Below, piece after piece: positions 13,687 through 60,214 of a stretch of 64,000 nt of DNA; position 1 is the stretch's first letter; every line of letters starts with the position of its first letter. The DNA lies in sequence record HE978309. The stretch is one strand, 5' to 3'. The translations under genes and the position numbers were made by a program. The stretch is from Enterobacteria phage GEC-3S. A model generated the notes under the pieces. The model ran no database searches. It saw only the letters and a program-made list of their open reading frames with translations, and was not told where the DNA came from.

Positions 13687-13718
13687 AAAAACAAAAAAGG
13701 CTACCCCGAAGGATAGCC
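13687..13718 (-). terminator. rho-independent terminator after the gp38-like gene
   Basis: GGCTAtCC-TTCG-GGgTAGCC hairpin followed by TTTTTTGTTTTTG on the minus strand. Confidence 0.65.
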
Positions 13719-13725
13719 CATAAAA

Positions 13726-14505
13726 TTACACGCGAGCACCGTAGATCGTGCCTACTTTATCCCAGCGAGGGGCATTGCCAGTAACAGCCTTACCAGCCGC
13801 ACCACCGTTATATTCCGATCCCTGTCCACGGATATTACATTTACCACCAGCACCACCAGCATCACCACCGTTACCGCCATTATATACACCGTTTACAGAC
13901 CCTTTACCTGGCGCGGAAATAGTACCAGCAGTAGCACCCTGTTCCATATTAGCAGACCCACCGGCAGCACCAAACGGACGCCCACCGCCACCGCCAAAGG
14001 TTAATCTCATTTGTGAAAAAGGAGAATAATACCCACCGCCGCCGCCGCCACCACCACCGCAAATAGCGCCGTTATTTGTGATGCGTAAGCGTGTGCCTAT
14101 ACCGTTGTTAATTGCATTACCACCAGCGCCACCAGCGGAGTTATTGCCACCATTACCACCACGCCCCCAAACATGAACACCTGGGTTAATGATCAATGTT
14201 ACATATTCGTTTGTTAACGAGCTAGGGAAGTCAAGACAAGGAACTCCAGTAGATTGGGAAACAATATTACCCGTGATAGTAATTACTACCGGAGTAGATC
14301 CCTGTGCTTTCATCCAGTTAATAAGAGTGTCTTTATTGTAAGAGTTACTAGCACCAATGCTATAATGAATCTCTTTAGAGCGTCCGACCATTGCCGACAT
14401 ATACGCCGGACGACCTAAGCGAACAGCTTGCATTGCGGCGCTCATCCACCGTTGACCAGTCTCGGACACCGCAGATGATCCTACCCATCCAGAAGATATT
14501 GCCAT
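13726..14505 (-). CDS. gp38-like receptor-binding adhesin (distal tail-fibre tip) with five glycine-rich motifs
   Basis: N-terminus WVGSSAVSETGQRWMS, GRGGNGGN, GGGGGGGGGYY, C-terminus VGTIYGARV recall T2-type gp38; GAGGAAA before ATG; located in the early region, not beside gene 37. Confidence 0.6.
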   Translation of the reverse strand: MAISSGWVGSSAVSETGQRWMSAAMQAVRLGRPAYMSAMVGRSKEIHYSIGASNSYNKDTLINWMKAQGSTPVVITITGNIVSQSTGVPCLDFPSSLTNEYVTLIINPGVHVWGRGGNGGNNSAGGAGGNAINNGIGTRLRITNNGAICGGGGGGGGGYYSPFSQMRLTFGGGGGRPFGAAGGSANMEQGATAGTISAPGKGSVNGVYNGGNGGDAGGAGGKCNIRGQGSEYNGGAAGKAVTGNAPRWDKVGTIYGARV

Positions 14506-16133: not shown

Positions 16134-16363
16134 GATTATATTTTATTCACGTCCATTTGTATAGTAGTGTTTGAATCGACCTTTGCTAAACTAGTTAAAC
16201 ATAGTAACCAATTCACCATCCCTTTCCAATGATAACACTTCCTCGTCTTAGACGGGTCTTCTGATTCGGCAGTAATTGAACACGCGAAAGTATGAGGAAG
16301 CCAAATAGTTGTGTTGATGCTAGTATTCTTTTACTTCTGGTATGTATCCCAATGTGACTAACA
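16134..16363. other. about 230-bp non-coding interval; candidate structured RNA or long 3' UTR
   Basis: no ORF over about 30 aa on either strand; contains CTTCCTC...GAGGAAG inverted repeat; boundaries approximate. Confidence 0.25.
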
Positions 16364-16762
16364 TTAAGCCAATCGAGTGAGTTTATAAATTGTTTTAAAG
16401 CATAGAGCTTTGATATCGTCTAAAACGCTCTGTAACGAGCTATCAACATCATTATAAATCTCACTAGCCATTTGCGTTAACTCTTGCAAATAGGCAATTT
16501 CGCTCATCTCCTTGCGGACGACCAACGTTGGCTGATAACGACCAGTGATCCCAATATTGGTTTCAGTGAAATTATCAACCAATTCTTGCATTTCAAGATA
16601 GAACTCTTCTAGAGCCTTATGTTTTGCATAAGATCCCGGACCAGTTACCCCAAAATGCGCAGAATGCATATAAGTAACACTCATCAGACATTCACCGATA
16701 AAGCGGTCAACTTTATTAGCTTTCCCCTCTTCGGACGTCTTTAGAAAATCAATGAATTTCAT
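16364..16762 (-). CDS. hypothetical protein
   Basis: track ORF; start moved to ATG (MKFIDF...) behind GGAGA. Confidence 0.5.
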   Translation of the reverse strand: MKFIDFLKTSEEGKANKVDRFIGECLMSVTYMHSAHFGVTGPGSYAKHKALEEFYLEMQELVDNFTETNIGITGRYQPTLVVRKEMSEIAYLQELTQMASEIYNDVDSSLQSVLDDIKALCFKTIYKLTRLA

Positions 16763-17051: not shown

Positions 17052-17120
17052 AAGTCATTCCCCCAGATTTAAAAATATTCAGTTATATTTATAATCTGGG
17101 GCTTTATTTATGATTAACTC

Positions 17121-26795: not shown

Positions 26796-26981
26796 TCAGA
26801 AATATGCAATATAGTTTGCCAGTCCTACAGAGTCATCATTCGGCATTGCTTTTACTGCCAGTTCAAACCCTGCTTCAACTTTCTGTTTAGCGGATTCTTC
26901 GTTATAACCCCAGATTACCAGAATAGCTACTACGTTTTCTTTGCTTACTGCTTTCAGTGCTTTAGTGATGCGACGTGCCAT
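26796..26981 (-). CDS. hypothetical protein
   Basis: track ORF; GGAGAATCAAATT before ATG. Confidence 0.55.
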   Translation of the reverse strand: MARRITKALKAVSKENVVAILVIWGYNEESAKQKVEAGFELAVKAMPNDDSVGLANYIAYF

Positions 26982-27027
26982 AATTTGATTCTCCGTTTAA
27001 GAAAGTGTGTTTCGTTTCGATGGGTGT

Positions 27028-27056
27028 ATTATGCTATAGGCCGGATCTGGTGTCAA
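27028..27056 (-). promoter_or_regulatory. sigma70-type early promoter (TTGACA, 17 bp, CATAAT) with A/T-rich upstream element
   Basis: read directly. Confidence 0.55.
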
Positions 27057-27080
27057 CAACTTTTTTAAAAAATTTTAGGC

Positions 27081-27110
27081 AATAAAAAAGCCACTCCGAA
27101 GAGTGGCTTA
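27081..27110 (-). terminator. rho-independent terminator
   Basis: AGCCACTC-ttcg-GAGTGGCT hairpin followed by TTTTTTATT on the minus strand. Confidence 0.65.
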
Positions 27111-27258
27111 TAGGGAAGGTAGCGAATCTTCCTTGTCTCCAACCTGCTAGCGGCCTAGCAAGTGAATGCTTTAGCGTACCGGATCGCCCACATACGCTGT
27201 AATAAATGCGGCTAGGTGACGTCCAAATCATTCTAACCGCGCTGTCTTTAGTTCACTA
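27111..27258. other. about 150-bp non-coding interval between a gene end and its terminator; candidate small RNA or structured 3' UTR
   Basis: the only track ORF here (27034-27231) spans the terminator and looks spurious; local stems GGAAG...CTTCC and GCGGCTAG...CTAACCGC. Confidence 0.3.
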
Positions 27259-27477
27259 TTATTTATATCGCTTTCTCTCGCGACGTTTTTGATCTTCTTC
27301 CTTGATAGAGTTAAATGCATCAAAAAGACACATGACACTGATAATGAACATAACCGTATTTTCTACGATATCCCACGGCTTCGCATCAGTACAGATCCCC
27401 CAAACGGTAAGAAATGCAAATAAGGCAGAAGAGATCACAAGCATGATACTTGCTAAGATATAAAAAGTCATTTTCAT
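27259..27477 (-). CDS. small membrane protein
   Basis: track ORF; hydrophobic. Confidence 0.5.
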   Translation of the reverse strand: MKMTFYILASIMLVISSALFAFLTVWGICTDAKPWDIVENTVMFIISVMCLFDAFNSIKEEDQKRRERKRYK

Positions 27478-27668
27478 GGTTTTACCTCAATTCTTCGATA
27501 TTCATCACACATCCACGCAGTAAGCAAGAATCCCAACACATAAGCAACAAAATACGTTAATGCTTCTTCTGGTTCGGTGCTATGCGCCATCATCAGACCA
27601 GCGAGAAAGGTCTTAACAATTACATTTAAAATAATTAGCCACGCAAATAATTTCATCGTTTGCCCCAT
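27474..27668 (-). CDS. small membrane protein
   Basis: track ORF; hydrophobic. Confidence 0.5.
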   Translation of the reverse strand: MGQTMKLFAWLIILNVIVKTFLAGLMMAHSTEPEEALTYFVAYVLGFLLTAWMCDEYRRIEVKP

Positions 27669-27892
27669 TTCGGACGAGTCTTTTCAAACTTATACATTAC
27701 GCAACAATCTCGAATCATCCACGTAACAAGAGCACCAGTCAACACAGACAACACACAGAAGAAGTAAAACGGTCCGGTTGCATTATCAACATGAGCAAGC
27801 CATGTAAAGAAAACACATGCAAGGAATGTAAAGAACATCATAAAACACAAGAAAGCAAAATATTTTATGCTACTCATAGCGCCACCATACAA
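27653..27892 (-). CDS. small membrane protein
   Basis: track ORF; hydrophobic. Confidence 0.5.
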   Translation of the reverse strand: MYGGAMSSIKYFAFLCFMMFFTFLACVFFTWLAHVDNATGPFYFFCVLSVLTGALVTWMIRDCCVMYKFEKTRPKWGKR

Positions 27893-27980
27893 CAGATCAT
27901 AAGAAAACCCAACGCAATAAGAATTGCATCAAATTTAGTGAACTCCGGTCCACCTATCAACATCATTCGTTCCTGTTCAG

Positions 27981-28223
27981 TCATAGATCACAGAGCCATC
28001 TTAAAGCACCACATAAAGCGAGCAGAATACTAGGTATAAACGAGATCAAAACAAGTTGGCAAAAATCATCTAAGGTAACACCGGAATAGCTACCTACTGT
28101 AACAACACCGATCATCAGACACAGAAAGAAAACAAATGCAACCAGAAACAAAGTATTGCTAAACAGTTTAGTGATCATTAGACACCCCACGACGATCAAT
28201 TTCAAAAACTTTTTTATCATCAA
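27981..28223 (-). CDS. small membrane protein
   Basis: track ORF; hydrophobic. Confidence 0.5.
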   Translation of the reverse strand: MMIKKFLKLIVVGCLMITKLFSNTLFLVAFVFFLCLMIGVVTVGSYSGVTLDDFCQLVLISFIPSILLALCGALRWLCDL

Positions 28224-28371
28224 CGAAGCATGTCACAACTGCCTCGTTGACTTCCGCAAATTGTTGTGTTACCCACTTAAGGTCAGAGCGAAACAATGTT
28301 CTATTAATAACAAATGCTTTACCGATCTTATCCTTACCCATAAATTTTGCTTTAACCATATCCAATTCCAT
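28168..28371 (-). CDS. hypothetical protein
   Basis: track ORF. Confidence 0.45.
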   Translation of the reverse strand: MELDMVKAKFMGKDKIGKAFVINRTLFRSDLKWVTQQFAEVNEAVVTCFVDDKKVFEIDRRGVSNDH

Positions 28372-28380
28372 ATTATCACC

Positions 28381-28539
28381 TTATTTGCTAATCGCTAAAC
28401 CCAATCCGAAGAGAGCACCCGATGCTACAGTATACCCGAAAGTTTCAAATGCAGTAAAGATATCTAAGCCACCAGCTAACAGAGTTGCAGTAAACAGAGT
28501 ACCAGCTACGAACATAAAAGTTTTACCGATAAATTTCAT
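28381..28539 (-). CDS. small membrane protein (about 52 aa)
   Basis: GGAGAATCAAAATG leader directly downstream of promoter 28571-28599; hydrophobic; below the ORF-track cutoff. Confidence 0.45.
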   Translation of the reverse strand: MKFIGKTFMFVAGTLFTATLLAGGLDIFTAFETFGYTVASGALFGLGLAISK

Positions 28540-28570: not shown

Positions 28571-28599
28571 ATCTTACTACCCCCGTTTCATGTTGTCAA
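28571..28599 (-). promoter_or_regulatory. sigma70-type early promoter (TTGACA, 17 bp, TAAGAT) with GGGGGTAG/ACCCCC inverted repeat around the -10
   Basis: read directly; near-copy of the promoter at 5830-5858. Confidence 0.55.
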
Positions 28600-29849: not shown

Positions 29850-30506
29850 TTAAATGTTCGCGAGAATCGCGCTTTCAAATTCTTCTAATGTGCCATTATT
29901 TATAATGATGGTTTCACCGTCAATAGGCAAAATTCCTTTTTCGGTGGAGTGAGTCGATACAATACCAGTATCACGCTGAATATGCAACACCTTAGCACCC
30001 ATAGCACGCATGAGAGCAATTTCAATAGGCTGACGCACATCAACCACTACAAAATACCCTTCTTCATTTTTGCGCTTCATAAACTCATCCACAAATAGAT
30101 TACACCAATAAAGCGGATTGATCAAGTTAACCATTATATCAGTACCGAGAGTGGTTAACATGAGACGAATAGACCAGACGTTATTATGTTTTTCGCCGAT
30201 CTCATTAACGACCTTGTAAATCTCAGCCAGACGATCACAAGTAAAGGAGCTACCGCCATACTTCGAATCTAGCATAAGCAGACACTGAATAAACCACTTA
30301 TGCGCGGTGTAGGTATCAATACCTAGATCGGCTTCTCTGTCACGCCCTAACCCGTCAAAGTCAAGATAAGTCAGACCTAAGTCTGGTTGACATTCGCATA
30401 AGATTTCTTTGATCGGCGCTGCCAGTTGATAACTGTGTCCATCAATGATTAACGCGGCAGTGTCTTTTCCTACTCGCTTTTTACCACAAAGTGCAATCAA
30501 TTTCAT
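29850..30506 (-). CDS. 1: deoxynucleoside monophosphate kinase (gp1)
   Basis: P-loop CGKKRVGKDT; N-terminus MKLIALCG and TLGTD, RQ..E motifs as in T4 gp1; AGAGG before ATG. Confidence 0.85.
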   Translation of the reverse strand: MKLIALCGKKRVGKDTAALIIDGHSYQLAAPIKEILCECQPDLGLTYLDFDGLGRDREADLGIDTYTAHKWFIQCLLMLDSKYGGSSFTCDRLAEIYKVVNEIGEKHNNVWSIRLMLTTLGTDIMVNLINPLYWCNLFVDEFMKRKNEEGYFVVVDVRQPIEIALMRAMGAKVLHIQRDTGIVSTHSTEKGILPIDGETIIINNGTLEEFESAILANI

Positions 30507-43645: not shown

Positions 43646-44484
43646 TGGCACGACTTTCTAAACAAGAACAAAAATTACACGATCTGGCGATGGAGCTAAT
43701 CAATTCAGATCGCCCATTGACCTATGAAGAAAAAGAATTTTGCTATAATAACTATCAGGGCGATGGTCTAGGCGGTTCAGGTGCATTCTTTACCCCAGAA
43801 GGGCTTGCATGGGATTTTACCATCGATGCACATTGCACAGGAAAAGTATTAGATCTTTGTGCTGGGATCGGTCGCTTATCTTTTTGTATGTTACATCGTT
43901 GTAAGCCAGAAAAGATCGTATGCATCGAACTCAATCCAGAATTTGCGCGGATTGGCAAGAGACTATTACCGGAGGCAGAATGGATCACCAGCGATGTATT
44001 CGAATTTGAGTCAAACGAAAAATTCGATGTGGTGATCAGCAATCCACCTTTCGGGAAAATCAATACAACCGACACAAAGGATGTATTTGAGTACACTGGC
44101 GGCGAATTTGAATTTAAGGTTATGACATTAGGCCAGAAGTTTGCCGATGTAGGTTATTTTATTGTTCCTACTGGTTCTGCTGGTTTTGCCTATTCTGGTA
44201 GACCTTATTATGACGGGACCATGAAGTCTAATAAATATCTAAAATGGAGCAAACAAACTGGTTTGGTGACTTATGCCGGATGTGGGATCGATACATCAAT
44301 CTATCGCGATGAATGGCATAGTACCAACGTTTTAACAGAAGTGGTTGAGGTTCGGTATTACGAGAAAGAAGCCGTAGAAGCGCCTAAATCGCGTCCTAAC
44401 GAACAAATAGAAGAAAGTAAGGAGATTACCTTACCGAAACAGGAAAGCGAGTCTGGGACGCTCTCAGATTTGTTTGACATTTAA
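43645..44484 (+). CDS. SAM-dependent methyltransferase (N6-adenine or N4-cytosine-type NPPF motif; target unknown)
   Basis: motif I VLDLCAGIGRL then motif IV VISNPPFG about 45 aa later; TAATG overlap with the upstream gene. Confidence 0.7.
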   Translation: MARLSKQEQKLHDLAMELINSDRPLTYEEKEFCYNNYQGDGLGGSGAFFTPEGLAWDFTIDAHCTGKVLDLCAGIGRLSFCMLHRCKPEKIVCIELNPEFARIGKRLLPEAEWITSDVFEFESNEKFDVVISNPPFGKINTTDTKDVFEYTGGEFEFKVMTLGQKFADVGYFIVPTGSAGFAYSGRPYYDGTMKSNKYLKWSKQTGLVTYAGCGIDTSIYRDEWHSTNVLTEVVEVRYYEKEAVEAPKSRPNEQIEESKEITLPKQESESGTLSDLFDI

Positions 44485-44489
44485 TTATA

Positions 44490-44515
44490 AGCCGTCCTTG
44501 TGGGCGGCTTTTTTG
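44490..44515 (+). terminator. rho-independent terminator closing the cassette
   Basis: AGCCGTCC-ttgt-GGgCGGCT hairpin followed by TTTTTT. Confidence 0.65.
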
Positions 44516-44524
44516 TATGTATTT

Positions 44525-58648: not shown

Positions 58649-60214
58649 ATGTTTAGTAGATTAAAAATGCTTGCGCGTTGGGCTGATTTTGACAACGACA
58701 AATACGAAGAACAAATTAAAGATAAAGCAGAGTCTATCGCCGCACCTAAAAACAATGATGGTGCTACGGAAGTAGAAATTAATGATAATTTACCTGCTAG
58801 CGCGTGGAACTCTCTTACCCAGCAATTTTACAGCACCGACCAGAAAATCAGCACAACTAAGCAATTAGTTAACACATATCGCGGTTTGATGAATAACCAT
58901 GAAGTCGAAAACGCTGTACAAAATATCGTTAACGATGCGATTGTATTTGAAGAAGGTCATGAAGTTGTTTCATTAAATCTTGAGGCGACTGGCTTTAGTG
59001 AATCTGTAAAAGAGCGCATTCATGAAGAATTTAAAGATCTTTTAAACACTATCCAGTTTGATAGGCGCGGTCAGGATATGTTCCGTCGCTGGTATGTCGA
59101 TTCGCGTATTTTCTTCCATAAAATCATCGGCAAAAATCCAAAAGATGGTATCGTAGAATTGCGCCAGCTTGACCCACGTAATCTTGAATATGTTCGCGAG
59201 ATCATTACAGAAGACACACCGGAAGGTAAAATTTATAAAGCAACGAAAGAATATTTCATTTACACCGTAGGCAATAGTTCTTATTGCGCGGGTGGTCAAG
59301 TATTCTCTCCTAATAGTCGCGTTAAAATCCCTCGTAGTGCTATTACATACGCTCACAGCGGCTTGATGGATTGTGATGATAAATATATCATTGGTTATTT
59401 GCATCGGGCTGTTAAGCCAGCAAACCAGCTTAAATTGTTGGAAGACGCAATGGTCGTTTATCGTATCACGCGTGCACCGGAACGCCGAGTGTTCTTTATT
59501 GATACCGGAAACATGAACAACCGCAAGGCTGCACAGCACATGAACTCAGTGGCACAGTCTTTTAAAAACCGCGTTGTTTATGATGCATCGACTGGTAAAC
59601 TTAAAAACCAGCAAGCAAATCTATCAATGACAGAGGACTACTGGTTACAGCGTCGAGATGGTAAAGCAATCACCGACGTTACTACTTTACCAGGTGCATC
59701 CGGTATGAGTGATATCGATGATATTCGCTACTTTAACCGTAAATTGTATGAAGCGTTGCGTGTGCCATTGTCACGCAGCAATCTCTCCGATGCTAATATG
59801 GTGATCGGTGGTGATGGTTCAGAAATTACTCGCGATGAGTTGGAATTTTCGAAATTCATTAGAACTCTGCAATCACAGTTTTCGGAAGTATTGCGCGATC
59901 CTCTGAAATATAATCTGATTCTCAAAAATGTAATTACGGAAGATGATTGGGATCGTGAAATAAATAATATCAAGGTGGTTTTCCATCGGGACTCTTACTA
60001 TACAGAAGTTAAAGACGCGGAAATTTTAGAACGTCGAATCGGTCTAATCGAACGTATTACACCTTACATTGGTAAGTATTTCTCTAACCAGACAGTGATG
60101 CGTGACATTCTGAAATATACCGATGACCAGATGGACACCGAGAAGAAACAGATCGAAGAAGAAGCGAACGATCCGCGCTTTAAACAAACTCCCGATGAAA
60201 TAGAGGATTTTTAA
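58649..60214 (+). CDS. 20: portal vertex protein gp20
   Basis: 521 aa; RRWYVDSRIFFHKII and MTEDYWLQRRDGKA resemble T4 gp20. Confidence 0.95.
   Translation: MFSRLKMLARWADFDNDKYEEQIKDKAESIAAPKNNDGATEVEINDNLPASAWNSLTQQFYSTDQKISTTKQLVNTYRGLMNNHEVENAVQNIVNDAIVFEEGHEVVSLNLEATGFSESVKERIHEEFKDLLNTIQFDRRGQDMFRRWYVDSRIFFHKIIGKNPKDGIVELRQLDPRNLEYVREIITEDTPEGKIYKATKEYFIYTVGNSSYCAGGQVFSPNSRVKIPRSAITYAHSGLMDCDDKYIIGYLHRAVKPANQLKLLEDAMVVYRITRAPERRVFFIDTGNMNNRKAAQHMNSVAQSFKNRVVYDASTGKLKNQQANLSMTEDYWLQRRDGKAITDVTTLPGASGMSDIDDIRYFNRKLYEALRVPLSRSNLSDANMVIGGDGSEITRDELEFSKFIRTLQSQFSEVLRDPLKYNLILKNVITEDDWDREINNIKVVFHRDSYYTEVKDAEILERRIGLIERITPYIGKYFSNQTVMRDILKYTDDQMDTEKKQIEEEANDPRFKQTPDEIEDF

Follow-up and report, generated by a model that had tools for sequence, protein, structure and literature searches.

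The window analysed here is a stretch of 64,000 nucleotides (nt) of Enterobacteria phage GEC-3S (sequence record HE978309), which is 98-99% identical to RB49, Phi1, JSE and 50-odd further Krischvirus genomes (T4-type myoviruses). Here we describe a 148-nt interval at 27111-27258, flanked by homologues of RB49p118 (27477 to 27259) and RB49p117 (26981 to 26796) and closed by an intrinsic terminator, which holds a conserved element of the genus. The interval most likely makes up the structured 3'-terminal part of an early RNA. We further read it, at slightly less than an even chance and from sequence comparison, as the body of a Krischvirus-specific, non-coding, structured minus-strand RNA module, most likely a small RNA derived from a 3' untranslated region (UTR). 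An earlier sequence-only reading had already proposed a candidate small RNA at this site; the interval is indeed non-coding, carried in one copy by all 57 genomes and constrained, with stem changes that are compensatory or wobble-compatible, but the logic offered in support was partly wrong, in its orientation and in its synteny.

The distribution of the element was determined with blastn (word size 11) against 50,697 phage records. Matches were confined to Krischvirus, where a 158-nt segment is found full length, in one copy per genome and at 96-100% identity, in all 57 records. Those same 57 records carry the Krischvirus-type 57B, and the nearest 57B outside the genus is just 52% identical, so that the collection holds no intermediate relatives. 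Exact 20-24-mers taken from both conserved blocks of the element matched Krischvirus-like contigs only in IMG/VR and metagenomes, and had zero matches in 185,579 bacterial and archaeal genomes. A host or plasmid origin was rejected because BLAST against E. coli genomes and plasmids matches the terminator hairpin only. More divergent lineages (L004, L037, L039 and L042-L047) were gathered from IMG/VR, the metagenome scan and the protein database; in these the p118 protein is 81-90% identical and the element almost unchanged.

Conservation was quantified by counting variable columns in an alignment of 16 Krischvirus copies, with the following result:

Element outside hairpin 2, terminator included: 4 of 151 columns variable (2.6%).
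Hairpin 2: 11 of 28 columns variable (39%).
Spacer of the downstream promoter at 27056-27028: 5 of 17 columns variable (29%).
p118, third codon positions: 19 of 72 variable (26%), with 14% for all p118 columns.
p117, third codon positions: 9 of 61 variable (15%).

By Fisher's test the element (4/151) differs from the third positions of both flanking genes taken together (28/133) at p = 7e-7, and from the third positions of p117 alone (9/61) at p = 0.002, being about 5x less variable than the latter. Its variability is like that of first and second codon positions. Between the window and L004, 1/120 differ against 27/72 (p = 2e-12). Invariant blocks and variable ones (the tip of hairpin 2 and the promoter spacer) alternate at a scale of 10-30 nt, and regional recombination therefore fails to explain the conservation. 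This fine-scale interleaving, together with the comparison with synonymous sites of p117, points to purifying selection on non-coding sequence. Since 120 nt of primary sequence are near-invariant, which is more than the base pairs alone, the conservation also suggests sequence-specific contacts, either a base-pairing seed or a protein site, beyond a stabilising hairpin.

Every open reading frame (ORF) around 27111-27258 lies on the minus strand, as given by the ORF list and in agreement with the RB49 annotation, and the RNA is numbered accordingly from nt 1 at 27258. Where two local stems had been noticed before, the minus-strand RNA folds into four hairpins, H1 to H4, followed by the terminator. 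The parts of the fold are:

27201-27258, minus strand: conserved block A, made up of H1 and, before it, a single-stranded A-rich leader; 2 of 58 columns vary among the 16 copies and 1 of 58 differs from L004.
27240-27208, minus strand: H1, of 8+4 bp with two G.U pairs in minus sense and the loop UUGGAC; 12 of 12 pairs invariant.
27173-27198, minus strand: H2, a 7-bp conserved stem with a hypervariable tip at 27191-27183.
27138-27166, minus strand: H3, with the core CUUGCUAG-GCCG-CUAGCAGG at 27162-27143 and a 4-bp lower extension.
27114-27132, minus strand: H4, formed by GGAAG/CUUCC with the 9-nt loop AUUCGCUAC.

H1, H2 and H3 are more stable in minus than in plus sense, H1 with -14.7 kcal/mol (z -3.3) against -11.0 kcal/mol (z -2.1), and H3 with -13.9 kcal/mol (z -3.0) against -7.7 kcal/mol (z -1.3). 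In H3, 11 of 12 pairs are invariant and one extension pair is broken in kaaroe (C->A); a GGAG motif follows in the linker at 27140-27137. The whole RNA with its terminator has a z score of -3.55.

Base-pair changes were examined in 19 distinct sequences and 47 pairs, of which 41 are invariant, 1 is compensatory, 3 change by wobble only and 2 (in the H2 tip and in H3) lose pairing in some sequences. Paired cells amount to 99.3%, against 29-45% when the partners are slid. The H2 stem passes from G-C through G.U (L042) to A-U (L004, L046), and shows further changes from A-U to G.U in 3 sequences and from G-C to G.U in UPWr_E1. The sole variant of H4, an A->G in L042, turns A-U into G.U in minus sense, where the plus sense would have C.A. 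Besides the broken H3 pair, the changes that inform on structure are confined to H2 and H4. In minus sense there are five fixed G.U pairs, and each of the four single-sided stem changes likewise produces G.U. Since a plus-strand RNA would have a C.A mismatch at each wobble change, a minus-strand RNA is favoured, with modest support from four or five events.

The same stem changes bear on an alternative at the level of DNA, in which the interval would be a protein site, a replication or recombination signal, or a nuclease target, and the variable H2 tip an escape from cleavage or binding. The strong conservation of primary sequence, the near-palindrome CTTGCTAGGCCGCTAGCAGG and the sharp localisation of the hotspot all fit such an element, as does its position in a hyperplastic, recombination-prone region (PMC2839356). 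The stem changes are G.U on one strand and would be A.C in DNA hairpins, which speaks against it, though recognition of double-stranded DNA needs no pairing. There are moreover no iterons or internal repeats, the genome holds one copy, no nuclease gene lies nearby in any fetched locus, and 120 nt is long for a binding site; we consider a DNA element improbable.

The H2 tip (27191-27183) occurs as about ten alleles among the 19 distinct sequences, in phages otherwise 97-99% identical. The alleles differ by substitutions and by indels of 1-2 nt; the loops include CGA, UGA, UUAA, AUUGA, GUGA, AUUAA and others, and the count of G/U residues ahead of the GG...CC apical pairs varies. Eight of the nine tip columns are variable, compared with 28 of 133 third codon positions (21%; p = 6.6e-5), a contrast that is somewhat inflated by ambiguity in aligning the indels. 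Either the tip is an unconstrained and mutation-prone quasi-palindrome, or it is under diversifying selection. If the latter, the invariant scaffold might display the tip as the specificity determinant of an arms race, the RNA serving as a decoy for, or inhibitor of, a host nuclease or RNA-targeting defence, or in exclusion between phages. Such an RNA would share its early operon with the antitoxin Dmd and would give a virulent T4-type phage a counter-defence module made of RNA; we regard this as decidedly improbable. A search of the window for a complementary partner of the tip found none above chance.

The transcript to which the element would belong is delimited by a terminator and a distant promoter. 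The region has been described as a hyperplastic, recombination-prone part of the genome in RB49 and Phi1, in which PeSL cassettes are repeated, each made of a stem-loop terminator, an AT-rich tract and a sigma-70-like early promoter (Arbiol et al. 2010, PMC2839356). The features that frame the element are:

28571-28599, minus strand: nearest strong upstream early promoter, TTGACA-17-TAAGAT, corresponding to RB49 Pe:60244.
27259-27477, minus strand: p118 homologue, a 72-amino-acid (aa) hydrophobic protein and last ORF of the early dmd operon, with its stop TAA at 27261-27259.
27260-27267, minus strand: late-promoter-like TATAAATA, a sequence match to the exact T4-type consensus, overlapping the last p118 codons and the stop.
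27082-27109, minus strand: intrinsic terminator, forming the 3' end of the RNA and the stem-loop of a PeSL cassette, with a 9-bp hairpin at 27109-27088, a cUUCGg loop and a six-T run.
27028-27056, minus strand: sigma-70-type early promoter of the p117 gene (26981 to 26796), TTGACA-17-CATAAT, the promoter part of the PeSL and outside the RNA.

The hairpin at 27109-27088 is a minus-strand intrinsic terminator because TTTTTTATTG trails it in minus sense and TTATAGGG in plus sense. In the RNA, the GC-rich 9-bp hairpin is preceded by the A/U-rich CUAUAA and followed by UUUUUUAUU, and its U-tailed end is common to the upstream mRNA. The supplement of PMC1524935 lists the equivalent RB49 terminator, called by TransTerm, at 58720-58737 on the minus strand with a score of 100; ARNOLD terminators are annotated at the equivalent site in the G2494, G37-3 and G5211 records, and among relatives the terminator is invariant except for the length of its T run. 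The gene stop at 27259 and the strong hairpin of the sequence-only reading were thus both borne out, while its placement of the interval downstream of the terminator has to be reversed, the interval being upstream in the direction of transcription.

No minus-strand terminator was found between the promoter at 28599 and 27109; by this layout, transcription from the early promoter must read into the interval, which would most likely form a structured 3' terminus on a transcript spanning dmd and six small ORFs. We propose that an early polycistronic RNA would start near 28599, cover dmd and six small membrane-protein ORFs and stop at 27109-27088, the element being its last ~170 nt. Seven short overlapping ORFs lie on the minus strand at 27474-28539, between the promoter and the element; their starts and stops overlap, they include the Dmd homologue (28371 to 28168), and several are hydrophobic, membrane-like peptides. 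The p118 homologue, which the W115 record labels a putative membrane protein, ends in three consecutive in-frame stops, TAA TAG TGA, at 27261-27253.

The length of this trailer is unusual. The window has nine strong minus-strand terminators; seven are placed at -1 to 10 nt past an ORF stop, and the two outliers are the 27109 terminator (149 nt) and the 16132 terminator (231 nt). PeSL cassettes normally have the upstream stop codon in the AT-rich tract just before the promoter (PMC2839356). At our locus 27109-27028 alone agrees with the PeSL definition, with a typical terminator (27109-27088), AT-rich spacer and TTGACA/CATAAT promoter and with membership of repeat families D1/D2/D4; the promoter itself, in families D1/D2, matches RB49 Pe:58699 (score 43.6). 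Unlike in a PeSL, 148 nt of unique, GC-richer sequence are intercalated here, and 27111-27258 is not part of the repeat, being single-copy both in the window and in the RB49 genome. The G+C content of the interval is ~50%, against ~39% in its surroundings.

The second long non-coding trailer, at 16134-16366 on the minus strand, extends over 231 nt from the stop of the rI.-1 homologue (ORF 16810 to 16364) to the PeSL terminator at 16132-16107. Its fold has a z score of -2.9. It is less constrained than the element, being at least 80% covered in 49 of 56 Krischvirus records and partly replaced in Phi1 and UPWr_E1.

A long structured trailer could serve its own transcript only. On this account the interval is a purely cis-acting 3' UTR, for protection from 3' exonucleases, for RNase E or RegB entry, or for tuning terminator read-through, and gives rise to no trans-acting product. 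It is favoured by the fact that the element physically ends the operon RNA, by the GGAG (RegB-type) motif at 27140-27137 together with the presence of regB in RB49 (RegB specificity from PMC3014915), and by the existence of the trailer at 16366-16134. Against it, a terminator hairpin alone protects a 3' end and 7 of the 9 window terminators do without a trailer; near-invariant loops and linkers are left unexplained by a structure-only role; the second trailer is far less conserved, with the replacements just mentioned; and no anti-terminator pairing with the terminator stem was seen in the folds. We hold a purely cis-acting role to be unlikely, while giving it real weight.

In the reading as a small RNA, a stable 3'UTR-derived species would be freed by endonucleolytic processing of the operon transcript and would act in trans on RNAs or proteins of host or phage. 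The architecture of four hairpins and a U-tailed terminator is of the kind bound by the enterobacterial chaperones Hfq and ProQ, which would be candidate partners. Enterobacterial 3'UTR-derived small RNAs include CpxQ, SroC, DapZ and MicL, of which DapZ and MicL have an internal promoter at the end of the ORF, and CpxQ and SroC are released by processing. The element resembles them in lying between the last stop of an operon and its terminator, with a U-tail shared with the mRNA; in its ~100-180 nt length, several hairpins and greater conservation than adjacent coding sequence; and in that it may have either an internal promoter at the ORF end, as DapZ and MicL, or arise by processing, as CpxQ and SroC. 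It differs in its origin from a virulent T4-type phage and in that the element is known here from sequence alone. Hfq-mediated RNA interactions matter in T2 infection, according to a 2026 preprint (bioRxiv 10.64898/2026.06.19.733364). The CsrA sponge was rejected as a function, as the four GGA motifs in 180 nt, counted by eye, are close to random expectation.

The late-promoter-like TATAAATA site at 27267-27260 offers an alternative 5' end and is, by prediction only, a possible late start for an RNA of ~170 nt. The remaining minus-strand TATAAATA sites lie at 29897-29904, just upstream of the 57A chaperone gene, and at 17086-17093, just upstream of rI. Since the latter falls on Pl:48756, a late promoter published for RB49, exact matches on the early strand can be real late promoters. 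The site at 27267-27260 is absent from the 17 late promoters predicted in RB49 (PMC1524935). No sigma-70 promoter scoring at least 9/12 was found in or just before the interval, and a MotA-type middle promoter or origin was rejected because RB49 is without MotA and middle promoters (PMC1524935).

The following observations weigh against the small-RNA reading. H4 is less stable in minus sense (-4.8 kcal/mol) than in plus sense, where it forms an 11-bp hairpin of -11.2 kcal/mol, and the body without the terminator has a modest z score of -1.8 (minus) or -1.2 (plus). In 168 of 500 shuffled controls the number of covarying pairs is as high as observed, and the count is not significant; H1, H3 and the terminator are near-invariant and hence uninformative on structure, and covariation is thin. 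In L042 and L047 a block of high identity runs from ~27290 to ~26780 and includes the p117 gene, so that part of the contrast with p118 reflects mosaic history. Exact TATAAATA sites number 8 in the window against 6.1 expected, which is no enrichment, and in contig L037 a 14-nt deletion removes the motif and leaves the element intact, making it dispensable in one natural variant. A search for complementarity on both strands of the window and in the whole RB49 genome gave a longest match of 12 nt against a shuffled median of 13; BLAST of E. coli genomes and plasmids for targets, a screen coarser than seed length, matched the terminator hairpin only; and no report of a Krischvirus transcriptome or small RNA was found in the literature. 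A whole-genome RNAduplex scan with the full-length query produced meaningless long-loop duplexes and was discarded.

The late promoter as proof of an independent gene was consequently rejected, on account of its chance frequency, its absence from the published RB49 list and its deletion in L037. The change in L037 (MAVA01000028.1), at the equivalent of 27255-27290, consists of a 14-nt deletion and a compensating 2-nt insertion (GATATAAATAATAG), an assembly artefact being possible; an ORF stop is preserved, the C-terminus of p118 being recoded so that its new end is the TGA of AGTGAAC.

Several of these points would also suit an interval that has no function at all and is a spacer or the remnant of a lost gene within a recently spread mosaic segment (element, PeSL and p117 gene), the H2 tip and the promoter spacer being mutational hotspots, for example through quasi-palindrome template switching. 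The genomes are mosaic, with identity to contig L004 ranging from 66 to 100% along 3 kb, and the L042/L047 block, the weak covariation and the z score of -1.8 for the body are compatible with this view. It has to contend with a variability ~5x below that of p117 synonymous sites (p = 0.002), and with retention at full length by all 57 genomes and every metagenome lineage, though indels and replacements are the rule here (PMC2839356). A decayed gene would, furthermore, change evenly. We judge absence of function to be rather unlikely.

The position of the element invites comparison with the small stable RNAs of T4. The gene order in RB49 is 4-2-3-1-57A-57B, then 21 small ORFs including the element, then endolysin; that of T4 is 4-2-3-1-57A-57B-ipI-tRNAs-segB-tRNA-rnaD-rnaC-e.8...e, and in Acinetobacter phage Maestro and Aeromonas phage 44RR, too, 57B is followed by tRNA clusters. 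The element is therefore at the equivalent of the T4 rnaC/rnaD locus, after 57B and within the interval between tRNAs and lysis enzyme. Like rnaC and rnaD it is a small non-coding RNA candidate on the early strand, placed after 57B and before the lysis-enzyme region; unlike them it ends in an intrinsic terminator, rnaC and rnaD sharing their transcript with tRNAs and carrying 3' domains that are tRNA-like. The roles of rnaC and rnaD were still unknown to a 2010 review, which hoped that related genomes would give candidates (PMC3014915).

Beyond position, the resemblance ends. MAFFT alignment of the element with rnaC (139 nt) and rnaD (119 nt) gave 53% mean column identity with long gaps, which is noise level, and the GGTTCGAATCC-type tRNA-like T-arm and the acceptor end of rnaC/rnaD are absent from the element. 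A covariance model of the element (R1) had no match in T4 66000-77000, Maestro, 44RR, leB or the loci of ~50-kb phages; elsewhere in the window it matched only 44396-44518 and 13690-13825, both of which are terminators. ARAGORN found 0 tRNA or transfer-messenger RNA genes in the whole 64-kb window, and the tRNA gene count of RB49 is likewise reported as zero (PMC1524935). A degenerate tRNA or rnaC/rnaD homologue left at an ancestral tRNA locus after 57B thus accords with the T4 locus and the clusters of Maestro and 44RR in position alone, and in view of the ARAGORN result, the lack of any Rfam tRNA match at E <= 10, the noise-level alignment and the blank R1 search on the T4 locus we consider it very improbable. 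The synteny with the T4 tRNA and stable-RNA cluster claimed in the sequence-only reading holds for the place after 57B and fails for the RNAs themselves; its failure to fold a tRNA cloverleaf agrees with the ARAGORN count.

That reading had also asked for a covariance-model scan. At gathering thresholds Rfam 15 gave 0 matches in the whole window, ribozymes, riboswitches, 6S and group I introns being covered; the outcome is the one it had named as contrary to a small RNA, and shows only that no described family is present. A permissive scan of 26900-27400 (E <= 10) returned sub-threshold models, mainly aligned to the terminator, and no tRNA. The best local scores relative to gathering thresholds were those of RNAI (22.8/47 bits), EF3314_EF3315 (21.5/100) and STnc100 (19.7/47). 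Like ColE1 RNAI (RF00106), its best sub-threshold match, the element is a series of stem-loops ending in a terminator; unlike RNAI, it scores 22.8 against the required 47 bits, mostly through the terminator, and has no replication-primer context and no antisense partner. By these comparisons the element is outside every described RNA family.

The coding potential of the interval was assessed from its two mechanical ORFs, 27231 to 27034 (65 aa, crossing both the terminator and the promoter beyond it) and 27206-27292 (28 aa, plus strand). Relatives carry 1-2 nt indels in the H2 tip, at 27190, and at 27246, where SSG23 and L039 are without one base; these indels shift the frame of both ORFs and break them, and the interval is accordingly non-coding, as had been supposed from the lack of a credible ORF. 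The records of UPWr_E1 (L026 486-629) and Delraymugoa (L032 520-666) have 'hypothetical protein' coding sequences across the element, the terminator and the next promoter, which are almost certainly gene-caller artefacts. That the interval encodes a small protein is hardly credible: the ORFs exist and two annotation pipelines called ORFs there, but they cross the terminator and the next promoter with no ribosome-binding site, are frameshifted by the indels at 27190 and 27246 in other phages, and have no counterpart in most genome records, which annotate nothing at the interval.

Downstream of the element, the p117 homologue (61 aa, 26796-26981, minus strand; Pfam DUF7421) has homologues 75-80% identical on IMG/VR contigs of ~50 kb from a different phage type, which suggests that the PeSL-flanked p117 gene is exchanged horizontally. 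The PeSL repeat families D1, D2, D4 and D5 are represented by 4 to 6 copies each between 925 and 29073, within the window's first half, and some PeSLs carry a stem-loop inside the promoter spacer, e.g. at 26787-26759.

The element is short and single-copy, has sharp boundaries and is shared by all members of a genus that has found use in phage therapy, with constraint concentrated in two blocks and a free-running hairpin tip between them. Should it prove not to be a small RNA, it would still be an unannotated conserved feature that is mis-called as ORFs in some records. If the small-RNA reading is true, the element would open a first route to studying how virulent T4-like phages use RNA for regulation or counter-defence.

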